DNA from: a virus
Length of the DNA: 64,000 nt
Virus record (IMG/VR): IMGVR_UViG_3300030737_000007
Span: 27,895-91,894 of that record
Reading direction: 5' to 3' (one strand)
Part shown: positions 3,216 to 57,840 of the stretch, piece by piece
Layout of the letters: the number at the start of each line of letters is the position of its first letter
Position numbering within the stretch: the stretch's first letter is position 1
Notes under the pieces: generated by a model
What the model was told of the DNA's origin: nothing
Database searches by the model: none
Seen by the model: the letters and a program-made list of their open reading frames with translations, nothing else
Program-made: the position numbers and the translations under genes

Positions 3216-3700
3216 GGGTGGTACGACTGGGGTCCGTTTACAATTTGGAAACCGGAAATAAAATGACTTTGGTAATTTAAATAAATTACTTTAGTATTTA
3301 TGAAAGGAAAAGACCCTCGGGGTGACCAGGTCACGTAGCGGTACCGGCGGCGGCCAAGGGGGTAAGGCCCGCCCCAGCCGAAACTGATTTTAGGGTCCCC
3401 TACTCTAGCCAGCCAGCGACTCGATCTAACTCACTCAGTCTAAACGAGTTAGCACGCTGTAACATGACTGGCTTTCGACTCTGATACACTGTTGCGAGTC
3501 GGGCATCTAGTGTATTCAGCGACTCACCAAAGGGAAATTGACACAATCGCGTCACAATACCGCGTCAAGTGATTGATTCTAAAGGCTGTTGACTAATCGT
3601 AGGATTAGTCTCGATGTCGTGTTGTCCATTATTCGGATATTTTCGCGGTAAAAACACACTGAAAAGTTCCACGTAACCTATTCGTCGGGCGTGTTCAGCA
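3216..3700. other. non-coding region, possible packaging/terminus or late-promoter region
   Basis: About 480 bp with no ORF; AT-rich block 3250-3310, G-rich block 3340-3400, several inverted repeats, IHF-consensus match AATCAATCACTTG on the minus strand near 3566-3578. Confidence 0.35.
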
Positions 3701-3701
3701 A

Positions 3702-3914
3702 TTAGGCGTGTTCGCGGTACGTGAACGGCTGGAGCAGCGTGTCGCCAGTGTAGAACGGAGAGAACGGGAACATCTCCGCTAGTTTATGCCTTGCTTCGCT
3801 TACACACGAGTCGCATACTTCTATTGTCTTTCCCCGTTCGATCTCTACCAGCTTATAGGCTATGTCATGCTTAGGGCATTGGGCGAGCATTGTATCCTTT
3901 GGGCGCGAGTCCAT
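3702..3914 (-). CDS. small Cys-containing hypothetical protein
   Basis: CPKH...CDSC; its ATG is supplied by a motif-A copy. Confidence 0.55.
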   Translation of the reverse strand: MDSRPKDTMLAQCPKHDIAYKLVEIERGKTIEVCDSCVSEARHKLAEMFPFSPFYTGDTLLQPFTYREHA

Positions 3915-4082
3915 TATCCGGACAAGGTTTCAGTAATCAGGTCGGTTTCAGCATTCGGTGAACCAAGGCAGACGGGTGAAACTAACTCCCATCGCTCAAC
4001 TTGAATGCTCTATCTCTACCCTTGGACTGTCTTACACTCTCTACAGTCTTATTACATCCGTTGCGGGCAAGCTGTTTCGTAC

Positions 4083-4256
4083 TTAGCAGGCTGGTCCGTA
4101 TTCTCGGAACGTTGGGCGCGCCTCAATCTTTAGTCGAAACGCCAGCGATTCACTAGGCATGTACTCTGTGACGTTGTTCGCTTGCATCCAGCGCGCGAGC
4201 TCATCTAGGCTGTTGCAGTCTTGTGCGCGTTCAGGCAGTTTGCGCGCGTCTAGCAC
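4083..4256 (-). CDS. hypothetical protein
   Basis: GTG start overlapping the end of the upstream ORF. Confidence 0.45.
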   Translation of the reverse strand: MLDARKLPERAQDCNSLDELARWMQANNVTEYMPSESLAFRLKIEARPTFREYGPAC

Positions 4257-4405
4257 GATAACCCTATGTCCAGACCGTCGCCGCATCTGTCCAGCCTATA
4301 GCGAATCTCTTTGATCCATTCCGCATACCATTGCTCTATCGCGCGGTCAAGTTTGCATCTCTTGAGCGTTGCGCCGTGCCGGTATTTGTCCCTGTTGCGC
4401 GCCAT
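4250..4405 (-). CDS. hypothetical 51-aa protein
   Basis: Manual translation MARNRDKYRHGATLKRCKLDRAIEQWYAEWIKEIRYRLDRCGDGLDIGLSC*. Confidence 0.45.
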   Translation of the reverse strand: MARNRDKYRHGATLKRCKLDRAIEQWYAEWIKEIRYRLDRCGDGLDIGLSC

Positions 4406-4451
4406 AGTTGTCCGGATAATGGAAAATCGTGCTACGTGTCGCTTGTTTACC

Positions 4452-4643: not shown

Positions 4644-4932
4644 GGGTTAGCGGTTGGGCTTGGCGTGCGGTTTTCCATTATCTGGAAAGTGGTTCTAAGC
4701 GGTTCCCTAAGTCAAGTATATAATCATTACTATACTTGCTTTAGAACCATCAACATAAGGTTTGGGGCAGAGTGTTTCCCAGTGGTTAGGGCGCTAGCGC
4801 TTTGAGCGTTGAAAGCCATAGAGGATAGGCGCGCATTCTGCCCCGTCCGTAAACCGTAAAAAGGTCTACATAGTTATTAGACGTTCAAATGAGACGAAAA
4901 TCACAACCCATCCGAAAAATAATTGAAAATAA

Positions 4933-5649: not shown

Positions 5650-5823
5650 GTGCAAACCCTAAAGAAACTAACACTTACACACGTATTGCTCGCCGTCATT
5701 GCTGTGATGCTCGGCCTAACCTATCACCGGCTGTTTCTCATGGATCAAGACATAGAGAACAACGTAGAGTTTTCACAACAGATTGCAACAGCGTTCGGCG
5801 CGCTTCCGAGCTCGGCGCGCTAG
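5650..5823 (+). CDS. small membrane protein
   Basis: GGAGG RBS then GTG; MQTLKKLTLTHVLLAVIAVMLGLTYHRL... with one transmembrane helix. Confidence 0.65.
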   Translation: MQTLKKLTLTHVLLAVIAVMLGLTYHRLFLMDQDIENNVEFSQQIATAFGALPSSAR

Positions 5824-5892
5824 TTCTCAGTTTGAGAATTCCAGATAATGGACATAACCGCGCGGCGCGTATCGTCGCAGAATGAGGAACTT

Positions 5893-6075
5893 ATGGAAGA
5901 TCCAAGGGACGAAATTTACCGCGAAATGGCTCGGGAAGAGTACGGCTCCGACGAATGCGAGATAGATGATAACGCAGTGGTCAGCTACGGCGAGGATGGG
6001 GCGTTCGTCGCGGCTTGGGTTTGGGTTCGCTACCCCGAGAAAAGCGAAACAGAGGACGAAGACGAAGCCGCCTGA
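5893..6075 (+). CDS. small acidic hypothetical protein
   Basis: GAGG RBS; ...GAFVAAWVWV...; stop codon lies inside the hammerhead core. Confidence 0.75.
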   Translation: MEDPRDEIYREMAREEYGSDECEIDDNAVVSYGEDGAFVAAWVWVRYPEKSETEDEDEAA

Positions 6076-6308: not shown

Positions 6309-6375
6309 GCTCCCCTACAACCTGGCCGCCAAGTGGCGGGGAGCGGGCAACGGGTTTATCCCGGCTAATAGGTTG
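6309..6375 (+). ncRNA. HDV-like (nested double pseudoknot) ribozyme 1
   Basis: P1 GCTCCCC/GGGGAGC; P2 CAACCTG/TAGGTTG; P3 GCC/GGC with 7-nt L3 GCCAAGT; P1.1 CC/GG; P4 CGGG/CCCG; J4/2 GCTAA with putative catalytic C6365. Confidence 0.85.
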
Positions 6376-6391
6376 AGAAAGAGAGGGTTAC

Positions 6392-6649
6392 ATGAGAAAA
6401 TATCCTGAACACGAAAAACAAGCGAAGGTGCTCGACCAGAGTCAAACAATTGGCTCGTTCCTAGATAACGGCGGTCTGGGTGATGGTGTAGTTTTAGCCA
6501 AATGGGACGAACGTCCGGGGAGGGATAATCTGTACCCCATCCACATGGATATCAACAAAATACTCGCCGCTTATTTTGAGATCGACCTCAACAAGATCGA
6601 AAAGGAAAAGCAGCAGATGCTGAAAGATCTCCGAACGGCTGCCGCATGA
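6392..6649 (+). CDS. hypothetical protein
   Basis: 85-aa ORF with RBS directly after the ribozyme. Confidence 0.75.
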   Translation: MRKYPEHEKQAKVLDQSQTIGSFLDNGGLGDGVVLAKWDERPGRDNLYPIHMDINKILAAYFEIDLNKIEKEKQQMLKDLRTAAA

Positions 6650-6999: not shown

Positions 7000-7042
7000 T
7001 TGACGGGCACGAAACCGCAGCGTAGTATTCCATTATTTGGAA
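7000..7042 (+). promoter_or_regulatory. sigma70-type promoter with a motif-A variant over the start site
   Basis: TTGACG-17 nt-TAGTAT followed by TTCCATTATTTGGAA (7028-7042). Confidence 0.7.
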
Positions 7043-7054
7043 AGAGAGGGCCAA

Positions 7055-7273
7055 ATGACTAAGAAGGACGCCGTAGCAACAGCAGTCAAGCGAGTAGACG
7101 AGACTGGGTTTACCTTCCTCGTTTTGCGCCGAGGATATGGCTATCGAGCGCAAATCTCTTCCTACCCAGTTGCGCGAGGCTGGAAGATCGCCGAACAGAT
7201 TGGTGTCGGCAACGTACAGAACTTCCGCGATGACCTACAGGAATTCAACCCGATTTGTGATGTCGTTTCTTAG
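7055..7273 (+). CDS. hypothetical protein
   Basis: GAGAGGG RBS, ATG at 7055. Confidence 0.7.
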   Translation: MTKKDAVATAVKRVDETGFTFLVLRRGYGYRAQISSYPVARGWKIAEQIGVGNVQNFRDDLQEFNPICDVVS

Positions 7274-7555: not shown

Positions 7556-7798
7556 GTGTTTATGCAATGCAAGATATGCAACACCAGGACGGAAGCGCCT
7601 TACGCTGTAGCGACGAGAGTCAACAGCAAGGAGCTTTCCATCAAAAGGTATAACCGCACGGCGCAGCCGGTCAAAGGCTCGGTGTTACTATGTGGCGTGC
7701 GTTGCTCGGGCTCGGCGCTTGAACGGTTCCTACAGTCGGGCTCTCTTGAAATGCCAAACCAGCAAGGGAGGATTCCAGATAATGGACGAACAATTTGA
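7556..7798 (+). CDS. hypothetical Zn-finger-like protein
   Basis: CKIC...LCGVRC. Confidence 0.6.
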   Translation: MFMQCKICNTRTEAPYAVATRVNSKELSIKRYNRTAQPVKGSVLLCGVRCSGSALERFLQSGSLEMPNQQGRIPDNGRTI

Positions 7799-8211: not shown

Positions 8212-8396
8212 TTGAAGTAACAACCAGCAAACAGTGGGCTTGGTGCAAAACCTGTGACGGCCTGATTGTGCGGGAGTCAGCAGATCGCATTTGGAGCCAC
8301 GCCCGATCAAACAACCATTGCCACAATTTGGTCGTAGAGCCTTTCATTTCAGCCACTGAGATAGAAATGGCTTCCTTGCTCCGAAATTCCAGATAA
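8208..8396 (+). CDS. hypothetical Zn-finger-like protein
   Basis: CKTC...H.....H; stop codon inside motif A. Confidence 0.6.
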   Translation: MIEVTTSKQWAWCKTCDGLIVRESADRIWSHARSNNHCHNLVVEPFISATEIEMASLLRNSR

Positions 8397-8402
8397 TGGA
8401 AA

Positions 8403-8597
8403 TCAACCCGCCGCAACAGCAGACTGAACCACAACACTAGGAAATATCACCAAGTTGGACTTCGGGGTCGCCTCTAACAAGGCGGCCCCTGTTGTTGCTA
8501 CCCAGTCCTCGATGGCTTGCTCTATAATGGTTTCGACCGACAGTCCGGTCCGCACGGCGTAATCCTCGACAAGTTCTAGGTAGGTCATAGTGAGCAA
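8403..8597 (-). CDS. small putative ribbon-helix-helix-like regulator
   Basis: YAVRTGLSVETIIEQAIEDW resembles CopG/RHH helices; divergent from 8744. Confidence 0.45.
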   Translation of the reverse strand: MLTMTYLELVEDYAVRTGLSVETIIEQAIEDWVATTGAALLEATPKSNLVIFPSVVVQSAVAAG

Positions 8598-8743
8598 TAT
8601 AGCTCATGCCCATCCGACATAGCAAGCATAAATCTGTGGAAATCAAATAATTCTGTAAAATTGTTTCCATTTCCGTACAACTGTGCCGCTATGCGGTGTA
8701 TCATACAGACATCCGCCCTACTAGGGCATACAGGAGATTTACA

Positions 8744-9418
8744 ATGGCGAAGCAAGCAATCCACACACCAGACCTCGCCGAGCTGCAATCGTTAGAGGGC
8801 TGGGCCCAACTAGATCCAGATGAGCGAGAGACAATCGTAACCAAGGCTGAGGACTTGGCCCGAGCACTTCACCAGGAGGGCCAATCCAAACTCAGCATCG
8901 GCTCCCACTTGGTGGTGATCCGTGGTATACTCCACCCTAAGAAGATGTGGACTGGGTTCCTCCGGAAGAGTTTCCACATGAGCGTGGCTACGGCGTTCCG
9001 GTATATCGCCGAGCATGAGACAGTTTCGAAGGCGCTGCCCGCCAACGTGATGAGCATTGCCATGAGCCGCGGGTATAAGATCAAGCCCCAGGCGATCGCG
9101 AAGAACCCACCGCCCAAGACGACGGATACGAAAGAGATTGTCCATTATCTGGACAAACTGGTCCGTATCCCAAAGTCGAAGGTGATCGTGGTCGAGGCGC
9201 TGGACACCGACCTGATGCTGAAGGAATGCCTGAACTTCTGCAAGACTCGGTTCGCGCGCGTGCCAAGTGGCCGCGCGAAGACTAACTTCACCCGGGCGCT
9301 GCTGGGTATGCTGCTCACCACTTTTGGAATGTCAGACCAGACGCTTGCTCCCGTAGCCGTCCCCGCTTTCTTTGCGGCAAAGCGGGGACGCCCGCTTGGG
9401 TCGCGTAAGGCTGCCTGA
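8744..9418 (+). CDS. DUF3102-like DNA-binding protein with C-terminal AT-hook-like motif
   Basis: IGSHL...W..FL...F.MS..TA.RY pattern; KRGRP near the C-terminus; AGGAG RBS. Confidence 0.6.
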   Translation: MAKQAIHTPDLAELQSLEGWAQLDPDERETIVTKAEDLARALHQEGQSKLSIGSHLVVIRGILHPKKMWTGFLRKSFHMSVATAFRYIAEHETVSKALPANVMSIAMSRGYKIKPQAIAKNPPPKTTDTKEIVHYLDKLVRIPKSKVIVVEALDTDLMLKECLNFCKTRFARVPSGRAKTNFTRALLGMLLTTFGMSDQTLAPVAVPAFFAAKRGRPLGSRKAA

Positions 9419-9922: not shown

Positions 9923-10101
9923 CGCCCCGACAGAAAACCATGAATGAGATTTGCGACATTCTCCACGAGCAGGTCAAGGCCGACGGCATGGGTATGGACC
10001 GAGAGAGGTTCATAAAACAGCACCGACGCTTGAACCACAAGTGGTTACTGGTTGCGCTAGAGAACTTGAAGAACCCGATCAAAGATGAGGTTTCCGGATA
10101 A
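9919..10101 (+). CDS. hypothetical protein
   Basis: ATGA overlap upstream; TAATG overlap with the integrase inside motif A. Confidence 0.6.
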   Translation: MTPRQKTMNEICDILHEQVKADGMGMDRERFIKQHRRLNHKWLLVALENLKNPIKDEVSG

Positions 10102-11237
10102 TGGAAAACGTCCTCAAGCGCGGCAACCAGTACCACTACTCAGCCACAGTCGGCAACGGCAGAAGGCTCCGGGCCTCGCTCGGCACGTCATGTCCGAAGT
10201 CGGCCAAGCGCCTAGCCCACCGTATCGGTCTAGCCATAGCCTCGGGGCCGGACAGTGAGTTGTGGCCTACCTTACGCCTCACCCTGCCCACCCAGAGTTA
10301 CCGCACCATAGCCACGGGTATGAGCGTAACCGCGCCGCCCGACTTGGCAGAGTTCGAATCCCTGTTCAAAGAGAAGCTGGACCGGCGGGAGAAGTTGGGC
10401 GAGATCACGGCCTCGACTCACAGTCTGTACGAGGCCGCCGCCGACAGCTTTTTCAACTGGCTAATCGGCCAGAAGATCGGCCAGATCTCAGAGGTAACCC
10501 CCTCACTGGTAGAAAAGTACCAGGTCTGGCGCAAGGAAAGAGTGTCCGAGCGGCCCCAGTCTAAAAACGGGCGCTCCCTGCTGACGGACAACACGGTGCT
10601 GGCCGCTATCTTCGAACTCGCCCAGGAGGAAAGGCTGATCCAGAAGTCTCCGTTCAAAGGCCGATTCAGAGCGTACGGTGCGCCCAAGGGTGCTGAGCCG
10701 TTTACACCGGAGGAGATGGCAAAGCTGGAGGCTGCGACCACAGACGGCGATCGCCTCGCATTCAAGATCTTCAAGTGGACAGGTATGCGTGGGTCAGATG
10801 TTGCTGATCTTACTTGGGCGGCGCTTGACCACATCGGCAGGACACTGCGTTGGGAGACCCGGAAGCGCGGCGTTTGGGTTACCATCCCGATATCCGAAGC
10901 TCTTGCTGATCAGTTGGGTGCGCGTTGGTACAACTCAACTGTAGTAGTGGAGGACAAGGTGCTTTCTGGCATGACGCGCCCGAAGCTATACCGCATGATC
11001 AAAGAACTTGGCATCCGGGCTGGCGTGCCCAACTGTCATCCCCACAGATTTCGTGACACTTTAGCCGTGACATTACTTGAGCGAGGTGCTACAATTTACG
11101 ACGTAGCCAAAATGCTGGGCGACTCCGTTACGACCGTAGAGAAACACTATGCACCGTTTACCGGTCGATTGCAGGAACGGGTCCGCGGGATTTTAGATTC
11201 CAGCCGGGAGTTTATGGAATTCCGGACCACGGGATAG
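10101..11237 (+). CDS. int: tyrosine recombinase / integrase
   Basis: TGMRGSD (R), TRK (K), HPHRFRDT (HxxR), LGD in place of LGH, KHY (Y). Confidence 0.92.
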   Translation: MENVLKRGNQYHYSATVGNGRRLRASLGTSCPKSAKRLAHRIGLAIASGPDSELWPTLRLTLPTQSYRTIATGMSVTAPPDLAEFESLFKEKLDRREKLGEITASTHSLYEAAADSFFNWLIGQKIGQISEVTPSLVEKYQVWRKERVSERPQSKNGRSLLTDNTVLAAIFELAQEERLIQKSPFKGRFRAYGAPKGAEPFTPEEMAKLEAATTDGDRLAFKIFKWTGMRGSDVADLTWAALDHIGRTLRWETRKRGVWVTIPISEALADQLGARWYNSTVVVEDKVLSGMTRPKLYRMIKELGIRAGVPNCHPHRFRDTLAVTLLERGATIYDVAKMLGDSVTTVEKHYAPFTGRLQERVRGILDSSREFMEFRTTG

Positions 11238-12605: not shown

Positions 12606-12779
12606 ATGAGCAACCTTAGCGAAATGGATGAACCCTGCAAGTGCGGCCATCCTCGACATGTCCACGTAATTCGCATGATAAACACCAAGTGTGACTTTGG
12701 CTGCGCACACGGCTTATGGAGCGACAAGGAATGTCCATGCGTGAAGTTCGTTTCCGTCGCACCACCTGAAGCAAAGTAG
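12606..12779 (+). CDS. cassette mini-gene 7 (Cys/His-rich)
   Basis: Manual translation MSNLSEMDEPCKCGHPRHVH...ECPCVKF...*. Confidence 0.65.
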   Translation: MSNLSEMDEPCKCGHPRHVHVIRMINTKCDFGCAHGLWSDKECPCVKFVSVAPPEAK

Positions 12780-12804
12780 TCCCACCACACCATAAGGAGC
12801 CACC

Positions 12805-12999
12805 ATGACACCGAAACAGCGCAAGATTTGGAGTGATCGGATGATTCAGAAAGAAATTCGAATGCTCAACTTCTACCGAGCTCCTCTCGCGAATAATGAT
12901 CCTCCTGATGGATCATTTCTCATGGGCGCATTCTTGCAGGGATGGGATTCTGCGATGCGGGCCTCGCGGAAAAACCCCAAATCAAAGCCAACGAAGTAG
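12805..12999 (+). CDS. cassette mini-gene 8
   Basis: Flanked by CCACACCATAAGGAGC repeats. Confidence 0.65.
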   Translation: MTPKQRKIWSDRMIQKEIRMLNFYRAPLANNDPPDGSFLMGAFLQGWDSAMRASRKNPKSKPTK

Positions 13000-13019
13000 C
13001 CACACCATAAGGAGCAGAG

Positions 13020-13742
13020 ATGGACGACAGAGATTTTGCAGACATGGAAACCGAGGACTTCGAGCGCGAACAGGACGATTTACGCGCCAAGCTCCCAGCA
13101 GATGCTAGCCTCTCAGAGCCGCAGGAGATTCTTGGAGAGTGCGATTACAGACTCGAAGGGCCGCACAAGAAAACTCCCGAGTGTAAGAACTGGAAGGCAG
13201 CCCCAACAGCAGCAGGGAGCGAGGAGCCGACGTCTCAGCCACGGTGCAGGAATTGCGGCCAGTTCAAAGCCATGCACGAAGGATGGAGATGGTGCGTTGG
13301 CGATCCGTGGGAGGATCATAAGAAATTCTTCATCCCCGGCGACGAACCCGAGGCCACGCAGGACTCTCCGAATAAGCCCCTAGACACACAAGAACTGCCG
13401 CCGCTGGGAATGACAATCATCACCCGAGAAGATGTAAGGCGAGCGCTGGGAATCCGTGAGCGCCAGTTACGCGAAGCCCGGGCTCGGCTCTCCCAGCTTG
13501 AGAAAGAGAACCAGTGGATCAGCGTGGAGCAGGAGTTGCCTACCGAGCGCGAGCAGGTAATGATCTCCACCGCTATCGCAGGAATAATGCTGTCCTCATG
13601 GTTTTGCTGGTTTCCAGAGAAGGGTGACCCGCCTTTATGGCACAACGTTCTTCGGGAATTTGGAGAAGTTACCCACTGGCGTCCTCTTCCATCCCCTCCC
13701 AGGGAGGCACTAAGCTCCGGGTCCGAAAGGAATTCCAGATAA
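13020..13742 (+). CDS. mosaic protein with C-terminal DUF551 domain
   Basis: QWISVEQELP...VTHWRPLPSPP. Confidence 0.75.
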   Translation: MDDRDFADMETEDFEREQDDLRAKLPADASLSEPQEILGECDYRLEGPHKKTPECKNWKAAPTAAGSEEPTSQPRCRNCGQFKAMHEGWRWCVGDPWEDHKKFFIPGDEPEATQDSPNKPLDTQELPPLGMTIITREDVRRALGIRERQLREARARLSQLEKENQWISVEQELPTEREQVMISTAIAGIMLSSWFCWFPEKGDPPLWHNVLREFGEVTHWRPLPSPPREALSSGSERNSR

Positions 13743-13918
13743 TGGAAACCCATGACCTGATAAACGAAGTAGTCAACCAGGCGAACATGATCGATAAAGG
13801 TATGACCAAGATGCGGGCCAAATACTCTTTCTCAGGCACGCCGCCGGAAGGACTGAACGAAAAGTTCGCCGCGGACGCAAAAGAGTTTATGCAGTGGCAC
13901 AAAATTGGTATAAGATAA
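13742..13918 (+). CDS. hypothetical protein
   Basis: TAATG overlap inside motif A; METHDLINEVV... Confidence 0.6.
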   Translation: METHDLINEVVNQANMIDKGMTKMRAKYSFSGTPPEGLNEKFAADAKEFMQWHKIGIR

Positions 13919-14138: not shown

Positions 14139-14365
14139 ACCGTCAAGAATTCGACAACGCACTTTACATCAAACCCAGTGGCCGCGAAGACCGCGAGGCC
14201 CGAGAAAAGTCTAACACCCGCCGGTTCTGGTTTCTGTGCGTTCCGGGCGGTGCGCTGGCCGCGTTTATCGTGGCGCTGGTATCCGGCTCGGGCGGGGTAT
14301 TCTTCTGGGCCTGGCTGGTGTTTACCTTTCTGATTTACGGGCTTAGTATTCCGGAGGGGAAATGA
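14135..14365 (+). CDS. small two-TM membrane protein
   Basis: Two hydrophobic segments; GGAGG RBS. Confidence 0.65.
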   Translation: MNRQEFDNALYIKPSGREDREAREKSNTRRFWFLCVPGGALAAFIVALVSGSGGVFFWAWLVFTFLIYGLSIPEGK

Positions 14366-17747: not shown

Positions 17748-17769
17748 CCGGGAGCAATATCCCGGTTTT
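17748..17769 (+). terminator. intrinsic terminator
   Basis: CCGGGA-GCAATA-TCCCGG-TTTT; T-tract overlaps a motif-A copy. Confidence 0.6.
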
Positions 17770-20117: not shown

Positions 20118-20164
20118 TTCCATTAGCTGGAATTTGTGGTAAAATTGAATTCTCAAATTGAGAA
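20118..20164 (+). promoter_or_regulatory. extended -10 promoter bracketed by motif A and motif B
   Basis: TGgTAAAAT 20137-20145; motif A variant 20118-20132; motif B 20150-20164. Confidence 0.6.
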
Positions 20165-22311: not shown

Positions 22312-22344
22312 CCGCTGTAAATTCCATTATCTGGAAAGGGAAAC

Positions 22345-42379: not shown

Positions 42380-42399
42380 TTCCACTATCTGGACGCACG

Positions 42400-49258: not shown

Positions 49259-49653
49259 TATTTACTCTTCTCCAAAAACCAGCTCAACGGAGTCTGGCGG
49301 CTGATCTCTTGGTTTTTCAATGCGCGCTTGAGGAACTTGATGACTTGGGTCTGCCCAAGGGTTTCGGTGACGCCGTAGACGCGGAGTAGGTTCTCCAGCT
49401 TGTCGTCGGCCTTGACTCCGGCCCGCGACGTACCTTTAATCTTGATTTCGGCGTCGAAGAGGCAAGCCCGCATTCCAGCCAGTGAAGACGAGAACACGCG
49501 GCGTCCTTGGTCGTCGATCTCGTTCTTACCGGGGCGCGAGAAGCTGGGGAGACCCAAAGGATTTCTGATTTGATAAAGTTCTGAATCAGGATTCGAAAGG
49601 CTACCTTTGAGGTGGGCGATCGCGTCTACGAGTGCTTCAATTCTGTCTATCAT
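49258..49653 (-). CDS. hypothetical virion-associated protein
   Basis: RNPLGL...G.RVF.S...G, weakly reminiscent of virion lysozyme-like domains. Confidence 0.55.
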   Translation of the reverse strand: MIDRIEALVDAIAHLKGSLSNPDSELYQIRNPLGLPSFSRPGKNEIDDQGRRVFSSSLAGMRACLFDAEIKIKGTSRAGVKADDKLENLLRVYGVTETLGQTQVIKFLKRALKNQEISRQTPLSWFLEKSK

Positions 49654-50492
49654 AAGAACATACCGCTTTCATCGGACGACGTGGTACTGAGGGGTCCGCC
49701 CGACCCGCCTATCCCTTCAAGAGCCGTACCGACGCCCGTTGCGCCGCCAAGCGCCGTACTCATTCCGCCCGTTAGCACTCCGAGACCCGCGCTGGCCGCC
49801 CCACCAAGGATGCCGCTGACCAAGTTCCACGGACTGGCTGCATTGTTCTCCTGGGTGATGGTGTTGATCTCGCTCCCTGCCGCACTGCCCGCGTTGTTCG
49901 CTGAACCTGCGGTACTGTTCGCGCTGGATCCGTATTGACCGGCGACTCCGCTGAGAGCACCGGTAGCGTTGTTGTAGTTGTTCAGACCCTGTTGGTACCC
50001 GGCCTGCTGAACACCTGTGAGTCCAGTTGCGGTTTGGTTCGCCGCCCCTGCCGCAAGAGCCGCTTGCTGCCCACTCGCCACGCCCGAGGGGAGAAGTGTG
50101 TTGCCCCCGCCCTGCGCGCCCTGCTGTTGTCCGAGCGCGCGAGATGCGTTGGCATACTGGGTAGCCGTATTGTTGATTACGCTGGAGTTGAGGTTATTGG
50201 TCTCCGCCGCATTAAAGCCGTACTGGTTTGGGCCCGCCGCCACCGTGGGGTTGAAGGTGTTCTGAAGCGTGTTCAGGATGTTGTTCTGGTTTGCGAACTG
50301 CTGGGAGTAGTCGCCCGAGAGCTGATTATAAAAATTAGTCTGCGAAGCCGCGAGACTGTTCTGAGCTGCGGAGGCACCTTTGCAGAGGTCCAATTTTCCA
50401 TTATCCGGAAAATCAAAACCCCGCTCGGACACGAGAATGTGCGCCTCGGCGGCCTCATCCCAAATGTAGACTAGCTCTGTGTGGATTCGCAT
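49650..50492 (-). CDS. pilot / ejection protein
   Basis: Asn/Gln/Ala/Gly-rich with a C-terminal Gly-rich hydrophobic stretch. Confidence 0.6.
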   Translation of the reverse strand: MRIHTELVYIWDEAAEAHILVSERGFDFPDNGKLDLCKGASAAQNSLAASQTNFYNQLSGDYSQQFANQNNILNTLQNTFNPTVAAGPNQYGFNAAETNNLNSSVINNTATQYANASRALGQQQGAQGGGNTLLPSGVASGQQAALAAGAANQTATGLTGVQQAGYQQGLNNYNNATGALSGVAGQYGSSANSTAGSANNAGSAAGSEINTITQENNAASPWNLVSGILGGAASAGLGVLTGGMSTALGGATGVGTALEGIGGSGGPLSTTSSDESGMFL

Positions 50493-51374: not shown

Positions 51375-51667
51375 TACGGGAGCCTCGATGTGAGGACGGC
51401 CCGAAAGTCCTGTCTCATCTCTTTGAAGTCATCGCGTACGCCCGCGAGATTGGCGTTGACCTGCTCTAACTCAACCTGGAGGTGCGGGAGGTGGTTGGTC
51501 ATCATGGTGTTCAGGTTCTTCTCGGTCGAGATAATCGCCTCGGGATAGAGTAAGAACTTGCGCACGACCACATAGACGCGGTAGAGGAAGTAACATAAAG
51601 CGGAGATTGAGGCAAGTTCTGCCCAGTGTTCTGATGCCCAGTAAAGCGGGTTCCACGGTGTTTGCAT
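51374..51667 (-). CDS. TM + coiled-coil protein (holin-like?)
   Basis: One TM helix followed by a heptad pattern. Confidence 0.45.
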   Translation of the reverse strand: MQTPWNPLYWASEHWAELASISALCYFLYRVYVVVRKFLLYPEAIISTEKNLNTMMTNHLPHLQVELEQVNANLAGVRDDFKEMRQDFRAVLTSRLP

Positions 51668-51673
51668 ATTGGC

Positions 51674-51916
51674 CTATTTGAGAGGGGATGGGGGAGTGAA
51701 TCTGTATTGTGGAACGACGCCGCCGTTGTAGTACTGGCGGAGATTATCTGGTCCTGCATTGTTACTTGAAAAAGGCATCGGGCACCGCAGCGTGGTGCTC
51801 AGGATCGGGGCCGCGTTTCCAGATAATGGAGGAAACATGCGCTGTACCGGCGGCGTCAACGAGACCTCTTCCGGATTGGGTGAAACCGTTCTGGACGCTA
51901 TAGAAGGCATTTGCAA
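51674..51916 (-). CDS. Pro-rich hypothetical protein
   Basis: ORF track; contains motif A. Confidence 0.5.
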   Translation of the reverse strand: MQMPSIASRTVSPNPEEVSLTPPVQRMFPPLSGNAAPILSTTLRCPMPFSSNNAGPDNLRQYYNGGVVPQYRFTPPSPLK

Positions 51917-51939
51917 TTTCCTATAATTCGTGGTACAAT
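51911..51939 (+). promoter_or_regulatory. promoter of the methyltransferase moron
   Basis: TTGCAA-17 nt-TACAAT, TGG-extended; ATG 7 nt later (likely leaderless). Confidence 0.65.
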
Positions 51940-51946
51940 AAAATAA

Positions 51947-52546
51947 ATGAGAGTACTAGTTGCGTGTGAATTTTCAGGAAGGGTCCGCGAGGCTTTCCGT
52001 AGGCGCGGGCATGACGCTTGGAGTTGCGACTTAGAACCAGCAGAAGACGGTAGCCCGTTCCACCGCCAAGGAGATATTCTGGAGTGGTTCTACTGGTCAA
52101 GTTGGGACTTAATGATTGCACATCCTCCTTGCACCTACTTAAGCCGGGCCGGGGCACGTTGGTGGAAAAATCCAGAACGCCAGAAACTAGCCGACAACGC
52201 CTTTCGGTTCGTCCAAGTTCTTACATCGAACCCAATGATTCCGAAAGTCGCTATCGAGAACCCCATAGGACAGTTGAACCGGCGTTGGAGGTATCCCGAC
52301 CAGACTATTCACCCGTGGATGTTTGGAGAGCCATACACGAAAGCTACGTGTCTTTGGTTGAAAGGCTTACCTAAGCTGACCCCCGCCAATATAGTTCCAG
52401 AAGAACAACGGACTCCTTGGGTCGCTTGCAACAGATCAGCGCGAAAGAAAGCCGGTCTGCCGCGACTAGGTGTTGTAAGCGGCGGACGGGAAGCTAGCCG
52501 TACGTTTCAAGGAATTGCAGAGGCAATGGCTGAACAATGGTCGTAA
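51947..52546 (+). CDS. short DNA cytosine methyltransferase-like protein
   Basis: VLVACEFSG.VR, AHPPCT (PC), IENP, RS.TF.GIA.AMA.QW-type C-terminus. Confidence 0.8.
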   Translation: MRVLVACEFSGRVREAFRRRGHDAWSCDLEPAEDGSPFHRQGDILEWFYWSSWDLMIAHPPCTYLSRAGARWWKNPERQKLADNAFRFVQVLTSNPMIPKVAIENPIGQLNRRWRYPDQTIHPWMFGEPYTKATCLWLKGLPKLTPANIVPEEQRTPWVACNRSARKKAGLPRLGVVSGGREASRTFQGIAEAMAEQWS

Positions 52547-52560
52547 GTTGTTGATTCGGC

Positions 52561-55500
52561 TCACTTTTCCTGCTCAAACGCCCCGAATACGCTCAGCGCC
52601 AGCAGCTCATTCTGAACCGTGTCCGTCCCCCAGTTGACCTCAATCTGCATGTGGCGGCAGACGGCGGGGTCTTGGGTCTGGGATAGGTAGAACCGTTGGG
52701 CGTATGTGGTGGCGCTCGGCTCTAGCTGGGTTGGATCCGGGTGGAAGAACACGAGGGGTTCGAAGTAGCCGCCAAGGGTGGTATTGACGGTCAGGCCAGC
52801 TCCGGTGCCCGTGATGTTGGTGGTCGGGACCGCAGTTCCATTATCTGGAAAAGTCTGGCCGGACACTGTGATCTGGAGGGTCTCGGCCGCGCCACCCGCT
52901 CCGACAGACAGAACCCGCGCTACTCCGGGCTGCGCGCCAGGGACGGTGATCTGCACGAGGTTGCCGACCGCGTACCCAGTACCAGGAGTATTCGGTACTG
53001 CGGTCGCGAGGCCGGTGATATAGCTGATCTCGTCTAGCTGGACCGCCAAGGTTACGGGAGTTCCAACCGCCTGAGAGTCAGTGGTGATGCTCTCGATCAT
53101 GGCGAGTTGGCCCGGCTGCGCGAACACAATCGAACCGATTACAGCGTACGCGGGGTAAGCCACGCCGTTGTCTGAGTTCACCGAGAAGTCGCGTTTCAGG
53201 ATCGGGCCGCTGACTGCGGGTCCGACGAGGAGATCGCGGTTGCCGGGGGTTGTTTCGACTGACTGAACTGCTGAAAACCCGCCAGTGATCGCGGCTCGGG
53301 GGCACCAAGTGTTTCCAGTTTCTGGACTCGGAGTAGGTAGCATCCGCCACCACGAACCCACGTAGTCTGACACGTAGATTGCCTGCTCTCGGGAACCGTC
53401 TACGTGCCAAGTGACACGAGTGGTTAGAGACGTGAAAGTCTCCGTGCCCTGCGTCGGACCAAACTGGTCTCCGATCGGGAAGCCAATCTGCGATACGCCC
53501 GAACTCGGATCCAGAGTAACGAACTGGTTGTCCGAAGTGTACATGTAGATGATGCTGCCGTTGACCGCGAAGGCGTCATACGAAGAAAGCCCGATATTTT
53601 GGAGGAAGGGCGAAGAGAAGAGAGGGCTCGAACTGGTGTTAGTCCCCTGAATCACGTACACGTCCGAAGTCGTAAAGGTGGTCAGACCGCTGACGGTCGG
53701 GAACAGCCGAACTGCGGATGACGGGAAGGTAAAGACGTTGCTCGGATTCCACGCAGTGTTGCCATTGCCGACAGTGTCGCCGGGACCGTTCGAGAAGAAG
53801 ACCTGATTTCCCACATAACCGAAGATGCAACCCAGATGGAAGGTGAGTCCCGTGATGCCAACGGGCGGAGGATTGTTCTCGTCCGCGAGAGGAGCCTCAA
53901 TCTCAACGTCCAAAGAAGTGTCGGGCAAGTAGTCTGTGTACTGCCACGTCGAGGCCGCACCAACAGTCGGGTTCGGGACTGCATCGAGGAATAGGAACGT
54001 CCCGCCACCCTGAGTAGTTCTCCAAACCCAAATCTGGTCGATTTGCGGATCAGCGATTGTAGGTCCGAACAGAATGGCGCGATACTCACCCGGAGGCCCG
54101 AAGACCTGGGTGTTGAAGTTCTGGCTGACGGTAGGGGAGGCTGTAGACACGCTTTTGTCTACCGAGTGGTAGCTGTAGGCATACTGGACGGAGCCGGTGA
54201 ACACAATGTTGCCGATGCCCACGTTCATCCAGGTAATGTTTCCGTCGGTCGTCGTGCCGCCCTGAGTCGCGTTCCAAGCTGGAGTGGTCGCCCCCGAAGT
54301 TGAAGGGGACGTAGCCGAGATCATGACCTGCAAATTACCATTCGAATCTAGGATCGCTTTGTTGAATCCGAAGACGGTAGATGGAGACCACGATACGATC
54401 GGACCCGCGTTGGTCCAAGTGATCGTGTTATCCGAGGTGGGTCCCCCTGCGGTGGGAGTGCCGACTGTAGTAGTGGTGGTTGTGCCGCCGACCGTCGTGG
54501 ACACTGTGGTGTAGGTTACGGCGGGGATCTGGCCGTTCCATGCGGGGACAGAACTCCCCGACTGCCCGGCGGTGCTTACGAACTGGACATTGTTGTTGGT
54601 ATCCAGAATGGAGTAGTACAGCGCGTACGGAGTGTTAGGACGCCATGTCCGGTAATTTGGGTTCTGGGAGATCGTGGGCGCGACCGTCGGTGTAGCAAGA
54701 CCCCAGTTGTAAAGAGGGACGCCGAAGTTTCTCCATTGCACGTTGCCATCGTTGGTCACACCGCCAAGAGCAGGGTTGAATGCAGGAAGAGTCGCTCCGC
54801 TCTGGTTCTGGGTCGCGGTGTTCTGGGAAGTAGCAGTGCCGGTTTCACCCGAAGGACCGAAGGGAGTAGTGGCGGGGGCCAGCACAGCTACCTGATCGGC
54901 GTTCGCGCCGTAGACAGTAGGCGACTGGATGGCGAGCGTTGTACCGTTCAACCCAGTGAAGACGGTCATCCCGTTGAATGTGAGTGAGGTACCCACCGTC
55001 CAAGGAACAGTCTCGTTGAACGTGATCAAAGCGTAGTAAACACCGCTGATCGAAGAGATCAGGATGTTCGTTATATTCAGGGTGAACGCAGACTCCGCAA
55101 CTTGGAGGAAGCCGTTGGAGTCGAGAATATACGCGCCTTGGTTGAACACCGTATTCGGAGCCCAGACAAGCGAGGGCGTTAGCAGCTTCTTCTGATCCGG
55201 GCCGTCCGAGAAATACAACGCGTTGCCGACCGACTGGAAGCTGGTAAACCCAGCTCCTGCGCTCTTGGTGAAGAGTACGTCCTGTGTATCGGGGCCAGTG
55301 GCGTCGTATATAATCCCGCCGTCAGACAGTGTCATCGTACCCGTATCAGGGGTAGGGCCGCTGTTGACGTGACTGGAACCTACGTTGAAGACCGCAGATC
55401 CGGGAGTCGAGGACAGAACCGTAAAACTCAGACCGTTGAGGCTGGTGTTGACGGTCATCCCAGCAAAAGCGACCGAGGTGCCGACGGGTATAATGTATGA

Positions 55501-55944
55501 CCCCGCGTACATGAGGATAGCTTCTTGGAACCCGAGACCGGAGTTATACACCAGCTTAAGAGTCGAGATATTCAACACTTGCGAGGCCGCGGTGGAATCT
55601 GCGATGACCTGGATGTTCTCAGTGGACGAGGTCTGCGACTGGTTGAATGTCGAGGTGCGGTTCTCGTAGAAGCGGTCGATCGGTGGGAAGGTCTTCGAGT
55701 TGTAGACTGTGAGGCCCGGACGCCGGATGAGGGTCAGCTTGGAGCTCGTCTCGCAGTTCAGCCCGTCTACTAGAGCGTCGCCGCGCGAGCCGTAGAACTC
55801 TTCCTCGATATGCCCAGACGCCGCGTCCCTCAGCGGGCTACGGTTGGTCCAGATACCGTCATACGAAAGACGGTTGCTCCAGAGGATTCCGTAGCGTACG
55901 GGTTTGGACGGCTGCGCGCCTTTTGTTGCGAGGAGATTTCCCAT
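52561..55944 (-). CDS. tail nozzle / packaged-DNA stabilisation-like protein with inserted repeat domains
   Basis: 1127 aa beta-rich; RRPG near the N-terminus; repeated W.P.T....ILDSNG.LQ...TTDG.ITW modules. Confidence 0.6.
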   Translation of the reverse strand: MGNLLATKGAQPSKPVRYGILWSNRLSYDGIWTNRSPLRDAASGHIEEEFYGSRGDALVDGLNCETSSKLTLIRRPGLTVYNSKTFPPIDRFYENRTSTFNQSQTSSTENIQVIADSTAASQVLNISTLKLVYNSGLGFQEAILMYAGSYIIPVGTSVAFAGMTVNTSLNGLSFTVLSSTPGSAVFNVGSSHVNSGPTPDTGTMTLSDGGIIYDATGPDTQDVLFTKSAGAGFTSFQSVGNALYFSDGPDQKKLLTPSLVWAPNTVFNQGAYILDSNGFLQVAESAFTLNITNILISSISGVYYALITFNETVPWTVGTSLTFNGMTVFTGLNGTTLAIQSPTVYGANADQVAVLAPATTPFGPSGETGTATSQNTATQNQSGATLPAFNPALGGVTNDGNVQWRNFGVPLYNWGLATPTVAPTISQNPNYRTWRPNTPYALYYSILDTNNNVQFVSTAGQSGSSVPAWNGQIPAVTYTTVSTTVGGTTTTTTVGTPTAGGPTSDNTITWTNAGPIVSWSPSTVFGFNKAILDSNGNLQVMISATSPSTSGATTPAWNATQGGTTTDGNITWMNVGIGNIVFTGSVQYAYSYHSVDKSVSTASPTVSQNFNTQVFGPPGEYRAILFGPTIADPQIDQIWVWRTTQGGGTFLFLDAVPNPTVGAASTWQYTDYLPDTSLDVEIEAPLADENNPPPVGITGLTFHLGCIFGYVGNQVFFSNGPGDTVGNGNTAWNPSNVFTFPSSAVRLFPTVSGLTTFTTSDVYVIQGTNTSSSPLFSSPFLQNIGLSSYDAFAVNGSIIYMYTSDNQFVTLDPSSGVSQIGFPIGDQFGPTQGTETFTSLTTRVTWHVDGSREQAIYVSDYVGSWWRMLPTPSPETGNTWCPRAAITGGFSAVQSVETTPGNRDLLVGPAVSGPILKRDFSVNSDNGVAYPAYAVIGSIVFAQPGQLAMIESITTDSQAVGTPVTLAVQLDEISYITGLATAVPNTPGTGYAVGNLVQITVPGAQPGVARVLSVGAGGAAETLQITVSGQTFPDNGTAVPTTNITGTGAGLTVNTTLGGYFEPLVFFHPDPTQLEPSATTYAQRFYLSQTQDPAVCRHMQIEVNWGTDTVQNELLALSVFGAFEQEK

Positions 55945-55962
55945 TAGTTAGAGTTCCAGGTG

Positions 55963-55991
55963 TTGACGGGGCGAAGAAAAGGTGATAGGAT
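55963..55991 (+). promoter_or_regulatory. promoter of the endonuclease moron
   Basis: TTGACG-17 nt-TAGGAT, TG-extended. Confidence 0.65.
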
Positions 55992-56000
55992 TAAAGGACA

Positions 56001-56696
56001 ATGCCGAATCCGCACAATAAGCTCCCTCAAGAAGTAGGAGAAGAACTAGCACGGTTGTATGCCTCGGGTCTGGAGAGCAGAGTCGTGGCTGCTCAAACGG
56101 GATATTCTCATTACACAGTTATTAGCTGGGCCAGACGGCTGGGTGTTCCAATTCGACGTTCTCCGGGGAAGTACGTAGTAGAAATAAAAGTCTGCAAGAA
56201 ATGTGGAGTCGAAAAAGCAGCAAACGATTTTTATAAAAACCGGGAGAACTTAGACGGGTTGACCGGGTATTGTAAGGCCTGTGAAACCAAAAGACGGGAT
56301 GAAAAAGACCCCGACTGGCGTAAAAAGCTGCTCCAAGCGACCAAGAAATATCGGAAGGAAAATTTCCTAGGGTCGCGAGAAAAAGGGCTCAAACGTCGGT
56401 TCAAAATTACGCTAGAAGATTTCGACCGAATGCTCTCTGCGCAGAACAACGCGTGTCTGGGGTGCGGCGTGGCCAACCCTGAAAATAAAAGAAGGTTCTG
56501 GCACGTAGATCATGACCACGCTTGCTGTGACCAAAAAGATAGCACATGCGGAAAGTGTCTACGAGGAATACTTTGCCGCGGATGCAATATGGCTCTTGGC
56601 GGTGTAAAAGACAACGTAGAAACACTTAGAAATCTAGCCGTGTATCTTGAAAATAGTAAAATAAATCCTTTAGAATCAATACCACGGCCCCGGTGA
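56001..56696 (+). CDS. HTH + endonuclease VII-like homing endonuclease
   Basis: K.CKKC..EK....F......DGL..YCK.C; VDHDH.CC......CGKC.RG.LC..CN. Confidence 0.85.
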   Translation: MPNPHNKLPQEVGEELARLYASGLESRVVAAQTGYSHYTVISWARRLGVPIRRSPGKYVVEIKVCKKCGVEKAANDFYKNRENLDGLTGYCKACETKRRDEKDPDWRKKLLQATKKYRKENFLGSREKGLKRRFKITLEDFDRMLSAQNNACLGCGVANPENKRRFWHVDHDHACCDQKDSTCGKCLRGILCRGCNMALGGVKDNVETLRNLAVYLENSKINPLESIPRPR

Positions 56697-57761
56697 GTAC
56701 GGGTAGGCGGCTCCGATATCCATAGCGTTGGTCCACGGGTCGTACCCTCCCATTATGGATTGTCCAGGATATAATTGATTGTCTTCCTGTTGTCTATCTC
56801 CCGCTCGCACGGCTTTAAATAATTGTTCCTCCCACTCGCCGTAGGATTGTTGAGAATCCTTGCTTCCATTAAACATCTTAAGACTGGCCCTGAGTCCCGC
56901 TCGTACAAGATACATCATCTCGTTCGGAATCGGATCCATCGTCTGCTGCATCGTGCGGATTCTCGGCGGACGCTTTTGGTAGCGCGCTTGAATCAGCCAG
57001 CACAGACCATTCAAGGCCGGGACCGGACTCAGCCGCAACGCGTAGGCATCTGGGTCAGCCACGCACCATGTAACGGTTCCGTCGGCTACCAACGTTCCCG
57101 GTGTCGCGTTCGGAACAGCAGCAGGCTGGGTTGTCCCAGAAGTACCGTATGGCGAGTTTGACGGAAGCGTAATAACGTTTCCAACATATCCTGGAGACTC
57201 GATATTCAATCCAAGCTGAGTGCTGTCGATGAAAAGGATATTGCCGTTTACGTCAACGAACTGGTTGATCGGAACCCGCGGAGTTTGCGCAACGCCGTAA
57301 CCCGGGCCATAGACCGTATTCGCCTGCCACAACCCCATAAACGCGAGTGAGTTCTGGATGAAAGAGATGTTGAACGGCACACCCTGAAAACTAGTCTGCG
57401 CAAGATCGCGTACCGTTTCAAGCTGGAACACTGGCTTAGGCGCACCGTTATCATTCGACGTGGAGTTATTGATGTCAATCCGCCACGCGTCTTCAAGCCA
57501 ACCGATGTCCGTAATGTTCGAACAATAGTCCTGTTGCAAGCTGACGGTGATAAAGGCCGGGAAGTTTTTACGGTTCCACTTCCACGGCATGTTCTCTGCC
57601 AAAACGCGGGACATGACTTCGTTCGCCAGCGTGAGCATCGGCTCGGAGGAATAACCCGCCGCGCCGCCGAGGACGTTGTAGAACTCCGGATTGCTCTTTA
57701 GCTGGTTGGCAAGCTGCTGGACGGTTGTCGAGTAGGCTTGATCACCGGGGATAACAGGCAC
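56676..57761 (-). CDS. head-tail adaptor / tail tubular A-like protein
   Basis: AN.V.......PWKW pattern; position upstream of the nozzle gene. Confidence 0.5.
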   Translation of the reverse strand: MPVIPGDQAYSTTVQQLANQLKSNPEFYNVLGGAAGYSSEPMLTLANEVMSRVLAENMPWKWNRKNFPAFITVSLQQDYCSNITDIGWLEDAWRIDINNSTSNDNGAPKPVFQLETVRDLAQTSFQGVPFNISFIQNSLAFMGLWQANTVYGPGYGVAQTPRVPINQFVDVNGNILFIDSTQLGLNIESPGYVGNVITLPSNSPYGTSGTTQPAAVPNATPGTLVADGTVTWCVADPDAYALRLSPVPALNGLCWLIQARYQKRPPRIRTMQQTMDPIPNEMMYLVRAGLRASLKMFNGSKDSQQSYGEWEEQLFKAVRAGDRQQEDNQLYPGQSIMGGYDPWTNAMDIGAAYPYSPGPWY

Positions 57762-57840
57762 TTTAGTTCCTTTTCCAGATAATGGAATTTACAAATCACG
57801 AATCCAACCGAATAGCCAGTCCAGCAACTTCCCCCACCAA

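Follow-up and report, generated by a model that had tools for sequence, protein, structure and literature searches.

A near-palindromic 15-bp word repeated throughout the genome of an uncultured phage and re-spelled in its relatives

The viral genome IMGVR_UViG_3300030737_000007, an IMG/VR record of 91,894 bp referred to here as G000, carries a nearly palindromic word of 15 bp that recurs along its whole length, is concentrated at gene junctions, and is kept at corresponding positions in related phages while its spelling changes from genome to genome. The stretch analysed in detail, called the window, comprises bases 27895-91894 of the record (64 kb), and coordinates are those of the window unless they are marked as belonging to G000. 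An earlier note, made from the letters of the window alone, had drawn attention to the word and had proposed a genome-wide binding system; after comparison with related genomes this is still the best reading of it.

The word and its spelling in related phages

The core of the word is the 13-mer TCCRGATAATGGA, which occurs in the window as 25 exact copies and nine copies with one mismatch. These 34 copies stand against an expectation of 0.05, obtained from 100 dinucleotide shuffles in which the maximum was one. The whole record contains 37 exact core copies, divided 22:15 between the plus and minus strands, and 50 copies at one mismatch or fewer, while the reversed control pattern is absent. 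No word in G000 comes near this motif in over-representation, and it ranks at the top by far. All 17 plus-strand and eight minus-strand exact copies given in the earlier note were recovered at their places, its coordinates being starts of the 15-mer, one base ahead of the 13-bp core. The six one-mismatch copies that it listed are likewise present, but three others, at 27624, 31568 and 35842, had been missed.

With its flanks the consensus is the 15-mer (T/G)TCC-RGAT-AATGGA(A/C), A or T being weakly preferred immediately outside it. Forty-three copies of this generalised 15-mer are found in G000. It is an imperfect palindrome, in which inverted arms of 5 bp flank an asymmetric centre of 5 bp. 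The outermost pair is mostly T..A in G000 and G..C in the relatives. The G000 counts (T..A 25, G..A 9, T..C 3, G..C 2) are close to those expected from the single-position frequencies (approximately 24, 9, 4 and 1.5, in the same order), so the two positions vary independently; the mismatched G..A pair is present in 9 of the 43 copies. As RNA, the word is predicted to fold into a hairpin with a 5-bp stem and a 5-nt loop, at -4.5 kcal/mol for the G000 form and -7.0 kcal/mol for the form found in the related genome G003. No conserved partner element was seen upstream or downstream of the motif. A literature search with the word returned unrelated primers only, and a scan of viral contigs with a 14-mer gave, among the matches listed, only single chance matches.

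Approximately 160 relatives of G000 were found through the terminase. Eighteen of the records in which the word was counted possess a terminase at least 49% identical to that of G000, and 17 of these carry between 9 and 70 copies of the pattern KTCC-N4-AATGGAM; all controls have none, and by chance about 0.6 copies would be expected in 5 Mb. The exception among the 18 is G028, a 25-kb fragment without a copy. When relatives were instead chosen by DNA polymerase, those with 58-64% identity spelled the word GTCC-RGNT-AATGGAC, and a relative at 32% identity had none. The dominant centre is specific to the genome, the forms seen being AGAT, AGAA, GAAT, GGAT/GGGT, GATT and ATAA. In G013 some copies are perfect 15-bp palindromes of 7-1-7 geometry. 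Related arrangements extend to more distant phages: a perfect 16-bp palindrome, with arms of the T..A type and one base fewer between them, occurs 32 times in G019 (62 kb, 40% terminase identity), and a 15-mer identical to that of G000 at 10 of 15 positions occurs about 25 times in G020 (39% identity). No repeated motif above background was found in G018 and G005.

Placement and conservation of the copies

The gene calls used here are home-made, based on codon usage, and crude. Because crude calls inflate the fraction of the sequence that counts as junction, the test for enrichment at junctions is conservative. In G000, 28 of the 43 generalised 15-mers are located at gene junctions, which constitute 21% of the sequence (P 5e-10). 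Across six genomes, junctions hold 57-66% of the sites and 21-36% of the sequence (P 1e-5 to 5e-10); the six are related, so that site counts summed across them are not independent. The earlier note had described the copies as written into genes in several reading frames, which is correct but incomplete, since about 60% of them are at junctions. It had also passed over the stop and start codons that the motif supplies, the 69% bias in orientation and the conservation across the family.

The register of the word was measured on 122 co-oriented junction sites of the six genomes. The ATG within the motif is the start codon at 23 of these sites, and at a further 18 the start codon lies 10-11 nt past the motif with a ribosome-binding site in between. 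Similarly, the TAA within the motif serves as stop codon at 19 sites, and at nine the motif begins directly after a stop codon. The ribosome-binding site and the motif come in no fixed order, and inverted copies occupy the same short gaps, 4-21 nt ahead of the next start. In our reading, the word is not a translation signal but a 15-bp module fitted into junctions as short as they can be. For annotation purposes, it is a guide to the true start codons and gene boundaries of these phages.

Individual copies in the window, given below by the coordinates of the 13-bp core, illustrate these arrangements. The ATG of the motif starts 5848-6075 (exact copy at 5840-5852, +), the tyrosine integrase gene 10101-11237 (exact, 10093-10105, +) and 26072-26428 (exact, 26064-26076, +). 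Both a stop and a start are supplied by exact plus-strand copies at 13734-13746, where TAA ends 13020-13742 and ATG opens an open reading frame (ORF) of 58 codons; at 14968-14980, where TAA ends 14362-14976 and ATG starts the DNA polymerase gene 14976-17111, with a G003 copy at the matching place; and at 40341-40353, where TAA ends 39933-40349 and ATG starts 40349-40642. Short ORFs are opened by the ATG of the exact copies at 3910-3922 (-; 70 codons, 3702-3914 on the minus strand), 30295-30307 (+; 60 codons, again with a G003 copy at the matching place) and 37435-37447 (+; 63 codons). In the exact copy at 7774-7786 (+), an in-frame ATG after GGGAGG is probably the true start of a 64-codon gene ending at 7976.

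Other copies lie in gaps ahead of a start. The exact copy at 18431-18443 (+) is followed by a ribosome-binding site and, 12 nt downstream, by the start at 18455. Inverted copies are located immediately upstream of the start of 7037-7273 (one mismatch, 7029-7041, -), in the 33-nt gap preceding the SSB gene 22345-22788 (exact, 22323-22335, -), 15 nt upstream of the start at 29128 (exact, 29101-29113, -), between 20115 and 20174 (one mismatch, 20119-20131, -), and in the gap between 57761 and 57841, where both flanking genes are on the minus strand (exact, 57774-57786, +). Intergenic positions are also taken by the copies at 3625-3637 (-, one mismatch), 17769-17781 (+, exact), 38334-38346 (+, one mismatch) and 8388-8400 (+, exact), the last adjoining the end of 8403-8597 (-), while the copy at 42381-42393 (-, one mismatch) is found in the gap that separates the two convergent gene arms. 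Two exact copies, at 4411-4423 (+) and 4674-4686 (-), belong to the non-coding segment 3914-4933, and an exact copy at 51818-51830 (+) falls in a stretch of uncertain coding status (51667-52561).

The remaining copies are inside genes. Plus-strand copies in the RecT-like gene (21310-21322, one mismatch), the PD-(D/E)XK nuclease gene (27624-27636, one mismatch) and the sliding-clamp gene (33741-33753, exact, ATG in frame) are kept in position in six of six genomes, that in the nuclease gene with the centre proper to each; the copy at 35842-35854 (+, one mismatch), within the gene 35493-36131 discussed below as a candidate reader, is kept in five of six. The inverted copy of the primase-helicase gene (31568-31580, -, one mismatch) recurs in G006 and G012 at the same place and in the same orientation. 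The minus-strand gene 43248-47396, for a product of 1382 aa, contains an inverted exact copy (44717-44729, +) and, near codon 47, a co-oriented exact copy (47241-47253, -) whose position is kept in five genomes. Exact co-oriented copies also occur within 49650-50492 (-) at 50397-50409 (-) and within the 1127-aa gene 52561-55944 (-) at 52837-52849 (-), and an exact inverted copy occurs within the ORF 8696-9418 at 9141-9153 (-).

With respect to local transcription, 213 sites of the six genomes point with it and 96 against it, that is, 69% are co-oriented (61-77% per genome); orientation is thus not strict, as the earlier note had remarked in setting the word apart from mycobacteriophage stoperators. 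Clusters are absent, the minimum distance between sites in G000 being 263 bp, and the spacing is more even than random (coefficient of variation 0.70-0.73 vs 0.96, P 0.006-0.02).

Site positions are conserved between diverged genomes. G000 and G003 are syntenic but have only about 46 of 120 genes in common, and even in the best genes their DNA identity is 65-77%. Thirty-one G000 sites could be mapped, and 14 of them have a G003 site within 150 bp; 5.8 were expected, and the maximum in 1000 trials was 14. Sites in the RecT, PD-(D/E)XK, sliding-clamp, 35493-36131 and tape-measure-like genes occupy one and the same codon position in at least five of the six genomes. The sites predate the split between genomes whose proteins have only about 50% identity. 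Each intragenic copy uses the centre of its own genome, and the encoded peptide follows the DNA (for example VQILD, VQVMD, IQKMD, VRIMD and VHKMD). Inverted intragenic sites are kept as well, in the primase-helicase, clamp, clamp-loader and terminase genes, and in the motif-less G018 the orthologous genes are without the site. Because the word persists and the residues that it encodes vary with the spelling of each genome, the target of selection is the DNA, through a reading factor that co-evolves with it. The earlier note had inferred selection on the DNA and not the protein from the window alone, and the orthologous sites bear this out. The sites shift in concert with an unseen reader and override the protein sequence.

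What may read the word

On balance we favour, with modest confidence, the explanation that the copies are genome-wide double-stranded DNA sites for a phage-encoded, sequence-specific homodimeric protein. Perfect palindromes in relatives, the conservation of sites in both orientations, and the behaviour of the outer pair all indicate a protein with two-fold symmetric recognition of bases in double-stranded DNA. In particular, the outer pair has gone from G..C to T..A on both half-sites, and its members vary independently within G000, which is suggestive of one reader in contact with two symmetric half-sites and of no base-pairing constraint. Each site would consist of a strong half-site, AATGGA(C/A), and an inverted, relaxed half-site, and the specificity of the reader would co-evolve with the sites. 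At junctions the elements would be packed as stop codon, motif, ribosome-binding site and start codon, the motif sometimes contributing one of the two codons; sites for which there is no junction would be written into coding sequence. As to function, by analogy with KorB on RK2 or with the repressor of the stoperators, binding could perhaps silence or time transcription across the operons, or organise the phage chromosome, but we put this forward as a tentative suggestion.

A candidate for the reader is the product of 35493-36131 (+), a helical protein of 212 aa with a helix-turn-helix-like segment. It is among the unassigned proteins common to all of the genomes compared that bear the 15-mer, and its gene itself contains a conserved copy of the motif. 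The AlphaFold2 model (mean predicted local distance difference test, pLDDT, 85.6) resembles, over residues 1-145, the DNA-binding domain of ParB, Noc and KorB. The top Foldseek rows are KorB/ParB DNA-binding domains with weak E values of 0.6-1.2 (probability 0.72), and in VIA-align ParB/Noc/Spo0J domains fill nine of the top ten rows, the first being Noc bound to its site (6y93_B; Z 9.1, root-mean-square deviation 3.2, 114/116 residues). The protein is predicted to form a homodimer with a score of 0.74, the best control scoring 0.00; the runs agreed on at least 95% of the contacts and the partner pLDDT was at least 83. This mark was reached by 20 of 30 solved one-chain pairs and by 1 of 23 solved single chains, counts which hold only roughly, and for which an alignment of our own was used. 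The dimer score may also reflect likeness to ParB-family dimers that have already been solved. Genomes with the same arms of the word also agree in the putative recognition helix, which is different in G019, G020, G018 and G005. The N-terminal (CTPase) domain of ParB, PF02195, gave no match in G000, G003, G004, G001 and G005, while 11 of 14 control genomes matched. It is possible, though less likely than not, that the product of 35493-36131 is the reader, as a ParB/Noc/KorB-type helix-turn-helix protein without a CTPase domain. The earlier note had named this gene among three proposed binders, a reasonable choice in view of its fold, predicted homodimer and conservation in the clade. The other two, 8744-9418 (8696-9418 here) and 8403-8597, were rejected, an orthologue being found in only one of six motif-bearing genomes.

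Other proteins were also screened. The genes that track the presence of the motif (361-675, 775-1110, 1390-2100, and G000 21569-21910) have no family and belong to the structural module; a 236-aa protein among them has an all-beta fold of low confidence (pLDDT 61.7). From this location they would be virion proteins, and they were set aside as readers. An SprT-like protease, represented by two neighbouring zinc-protease ORFs at 2094-2767 (-), was considered as partner of the motif and rejected: it is present in G000, G006 and G013 and absent from the motif-bearing G003, G011 and the 100%-complete G012. A catalytically dead recombinase of the MrpR kind was rejected as well, since the integrase 10101-11237, aligned to the XerC-like 4a8e, retains the catalytic Arg, His-x-x-Arg and Tyr, only the second His being replaced by Asp. 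Pfam and PHROG scans of the early genes revealed no repressor family; no search was aimed at a gp71-type protein.

Several observations weigh against a symmetric phage-encoded dimer. It would leave unexplained both the strong conservation of the asymmetric centre and the steady co-orientation of 69% (213:96 in the six genomes), and the word folds as a small RNA hairpin located where a translational operator would be. As regards the candidate, a Z of about 9 is within the chance range of helical proteins and is not conclusive, and homologues of 35493-36131 (22-31% identity) exist in the motif-less G018 and G005. A host-encoded reader is also conceivable.

An RNA-level signal is kept as a rival because of the start-codon register and the orientation bias. 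The word would then be an mRNA hairpin, with the start codon inside it or the ribosome-binding site immediately 3′ of it, by which a phage RNA-binding protein or endoribonuclease represses translation or cuts polycistronic transcripts into separate units. The hairpin is predicted in both the G000 and the G003 form (-4.5 and -7.0 kcal/mol), the start register is sharp, with 23 sites containing the start and 18 ending 10-11 nt ahead of it, and 69% of sites are co-oriented with transcription; furthermore, A or G is accepted opposite an invariant T, as G-U wobble would permit, and at least one Rfam-supported self-cleaving ribozyme stands at a gene boundary of the same operon, which places RNA punctuation in the repertoire of the phage. 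However, the 31% of sites that are antisense to local genes are equally exact and are conserved in place and orientation, and many sites are deep within genes. Apart from the outer pair, the stem exhibits no compensatory changes in at least 10 genomes, and in G000 the two sides of that pair are independent, with 9 of 43 copies mismatched G..A; the genome-wide switch from G-C to T-A in fact weakens the hairpin by 2.5 kcal/mol. The hairpin seems incidental, and we regard a signal in RNA as distinctly unlikely. A signal for DNA transactions, which we consider unlikely, could be a nicking site, a Chi-like word for a phage UvrD-type helicase and PD-(D/E)XK nuclease or for host RecBCD/AddAB, or a site of replication priming or loading. 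The even, unclustered spread along the genome, the retention of sites in long genes, as though a maximal gap mattered, and an asymmetric centre that would define a strand are in line with this, and the phage encodes a UvrD-like helicase, a PD-(D/E)XK nuclease, RecT, an exonuclease, a primase-helicase and HNH proteins. The known Chi words, however, are 5-8 nt long, read on a single strand and strongly strand-biased, and the known phage nick sites are on one strand only, whereas the word in G000 is a near-palindrome of 15 bp on both strands (22:15). Its strong preference for junctions would be unexpected for such signals, and its sites do not coincide with synteny breaks (Fisher P 0.8-1.0), a result on which a role at cassette or recombination boundaries was also rejected.

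A quite improbable alternative is that the word comes from the host, in whose chromosome it would be common, for instance as an uptake sequence or as a site for a nucleoid protein or global regulator, and that the phage copies or exploits it. The density of about one per 2.5 kb is similar to that of the uptake sequences of Neisseria and Haemophilus, the lineage spellings could mirror host "dialects", and an integrase is present in what is probably a temperate phage. Yet a scan with the commonest 17-mer form, on one genome per species, returned at least 120 stretches from unrelated taxa, each with a single copy, and among the matches listed none of these stretches had a second copy of the 13-bp core, and no host or prophage emerged; nor is the word in the literature that was searched. 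That closely related phages differ in spelling at the same site positions is better explained by a fast-evolving phage factor than by a conserved one of the host. Very improbable, finally, is a promoter function, in which the ECF-type sigma factor encoded by the phage (36711-37187) would recognise the word as a single-element middle or late promoter similar to those of T4 or phiEco32, GATAAT being a -10-like core. The word matches TATAAT at five of six positions and stands just upstream of many genes, and the sigma factor, clamp and clamp loader are present in all genomes with the 15-bp word. But phage promoters, whether T7-type, T4 late or phiEco32 gp36-type, are as far as is known all co-oriented and upstream of the start, whereas here 31% of sites oppose the genes and 23 co-oriented junction sites include the start codon, which a transcript beginning downstream would lack. 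Conserved sites deep in genes, perfect palindromes in relatives and the failure to find a partner element upstream or downstream also argue against a promoter, and sigma-70-type predictions overlap two or three copies only.

Returning to a protein dimer bound to DNA, the complete picture would be of an environmental clade, with genomes of about 60-110 kb, that keeps a lattice of 40-70 positionally conserved sites, re-spelled in each lineage and read by a CTPase-less dimer of ParB/Noc type; we offer this as a speculative synthesis. If true, it would be a new chromosome-wide phage system by which self DNA is silenced, organised or marked. It would follow a logic different from that of stoperators, with their monomer and strict polarity, and from that of ParB clamps, which load and slide, and its sites would be forced into essential genes at a cost in amino acids.

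Gene content and comparison with known systems

The genes of G000 form two arms. The plus-strand arm (window 5345-42379) encodes a tyrosine integrase, a family-A DNA polymerase, a clamp loader and sliding clamp, RecT, SSB, a PD-(D/E)XK nuclease, a primase-helicase, a BCS1-type AAA protein, HNH proteins, an ECF-type sigma factor, a UvrD-like helicase in two pieces, endonuclease VII and an exonuclease. The remainder of the genome is transcribed from the minus strand and is structural, with the terminase and portal. Having an integrase, the phage is probably temperate. No close cultured relative was found at the DNA level; the DNA polymerases of the nearest cultured phages, whose hosts are Proteobacteria, are 37% identical. 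A cyanobacterial host was considered and rejected, since the HIP1 word, present nine times in G000 and absent from G003, gives no clear signal.

The ECF-type sigma factor (36711-37187, +) is encoded together with the phage's own clamp and clamp loader (18830-19777, 33167-34243), a set that recalls the clamp-activated late transcription of T4; it is found in all five full-length 15-mer-bearing relatives compared and is missing from two motif-less genomes. A second repeated palindrome, TTCTCAAATTGAGAA, and a TTGTACCACA-like word adjoin several copies of the motif in intergenic DNA (window 5820-5840, 20131-20160 and 38315-38334; G000 17600-17631), and these may be true promoter or operator elements of the early region. 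The HDV-like (hepatitis delta virus-like) ribozyme at 6309-6377 (+) lies at a gene boundary just upstream of 6392-6649. It matches RF02682 over the full model length with 45 bits, against a gathering score of 44, and is the sole Rfam family to reach its gathering score in the window.

The UvrD-like helicase is split into an N-terminal domain (23033-24055, +) and a C-terminal domain (24807-25640, +), the approximately 750 bp between them holding an ORF without family (24019-24810); in the relatives, too, the two parts are separate matches. An intron, an intein-less split or a mobile insertion may be responsible. A GIY-YIG homing endonuclease with NUMOD3 is encoded at G000 12677-13372 (-; locus L254), about 14.5 kb before the window and adjoining the capsid-gene region. 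In that region non-coding DNA lies between two conserved coding blocks, with 92% and 79% identity to G003, an arrangement that, to judge from sequence, is consistent with an interrupted major capsid gene. G000, G001, G002 and G004 carry GC-rich, tandem-like 9-11-mers of the type CGACC(C/A/G)CGACC (GGTCGGGGTCG), 8-14 per record, which probably encode a repetitive collagen-like or fibre protein segment.

G000 and G003, both about 92 kb, are collinear (loci L124-L128) with different break points, position x in G000 being equivalent to approximately 31,900 minus x in G003. From the different break points, the genomes are probably circularly permuted or circular, and their completeness above the estimate of 85-86%. 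The GC skew is positive on the plus strand across the whole window, the minus-strand gene arm included, so that strand composition is not in step with the direction of transcription.

The earlier note had called a genome-wide binding system of this kind undescribed. This does not hold: one described case has more than 30 dispersed dyads per genome, and stoperators, the SPβ repressor element (SPBRE) and the KorB operators are related precedents. The nearest case is that of Corndog and the other Cluster O mycobacteriophages, in which a 17-bp dyad repeat of unknown function is present in more than 30 dispersed copies per genome, with inverted arms around a short asymmetric centre and in both orientations (PMC4351075). 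Many of these copies are intergenic or near the 5′ ends of genes, about one third are in coding sequence, they are not tied to indels, and they are predicted to bind a dimeric protein (PMC4351075). Dispersal, the asymmetric centre, location inside and between genes, and the use of both orientations are common to the two systems. The Cluster O arms are perfect with 7-3-7 geometry, whereas the word described here, of different sequence, has 5-5-5 or 7-1-7 geometry with one relaxed arm. Cluster O phages also lack an integrase and belong to an unrelated group with other presumed hosts, while the present phage has an integrase and an orientation bias of 69%. A further difference from the Cluster O repeat is that the sites described here provide genuine stop and start codons, and that deeply diverged genomes keep them in place while spelling them differently.

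The stoperators of Cluster A are bound by an immunity repressor of the L5 gp71 type, as a monomer; they are fully asymmetric, strictly oriented, and lose their function on inversion (PMC9283540, PMC6550527). The likeness to the present sites is considerable: tens of near-identical sites of 13-15 bp in a temperate phage, mostly in short intergenic spaces, with spelling that is uniform within a genome and different between related phages, and with an orientation biased with transcription. In contrast to stoperators, the sites of G000 have dyad symmetry, which in relatives amounts to perfect palindromes, and 31% of them are inverted, the inverted copies being conserved. The SPBRE of the Bacillus prophage SPβ is a 15-bp element bound by the master repressor MrpR; its sites were first predicted in silico and then confirmed by chromatin affinity purification sequencing (PMC10516654). 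Here also a 15-bp repeat is found in a large temperate phage, but SPBRE has about 10 sites, all at promoters, and the present word has many more, genome-wide. MrpR is an inactivated tyrosine recombinase, and the recombinase of G000 keeps its catalytic Arg, His-x-x-Arg and Tyr.

The operators OB of KorB in RK2, the Noc-binding sites (NBS) and parS are palindromic sites of 13-16 bp dispersed over a replicon, as is the word in G000. KorB, Noc and ParB read their sites as dimers by a ParB-type helix-turn-helix, KorB being a global repressor, and the model of the candidate reader matches the DNA-binding domains of Noc, Spo0J, ParB and KorB, though the match is moderate only. Unlike in the ParB family, the N-terminal CTPase domain was found in none of the phages searched, so clamp-like sliding and spreading is not expected. 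RK2 has 12 KorB sites in 60 kb, and the density of sites here is 5-10 times as great. The start-associated sequences (SAS) of Cluster K mycobacteriophages, a 13-bp word, likewise have a fixed register with translation starts. Unlike the present motif, SAS are, as far as is known, always co-oriented, include the ribosome-binding site, and are never intragenic or inverted. To our knowledge, genome-wide repeated words occur in few cultured phage groups, and a function is known only for stoperators. The same phenomenon is now seen in an uncultured clade with unusually clear comparative evidence, and this clade, which supplies a candidate reader and dozens of natural specificity variants, is a good system in which to study what such a lattice of sites does.

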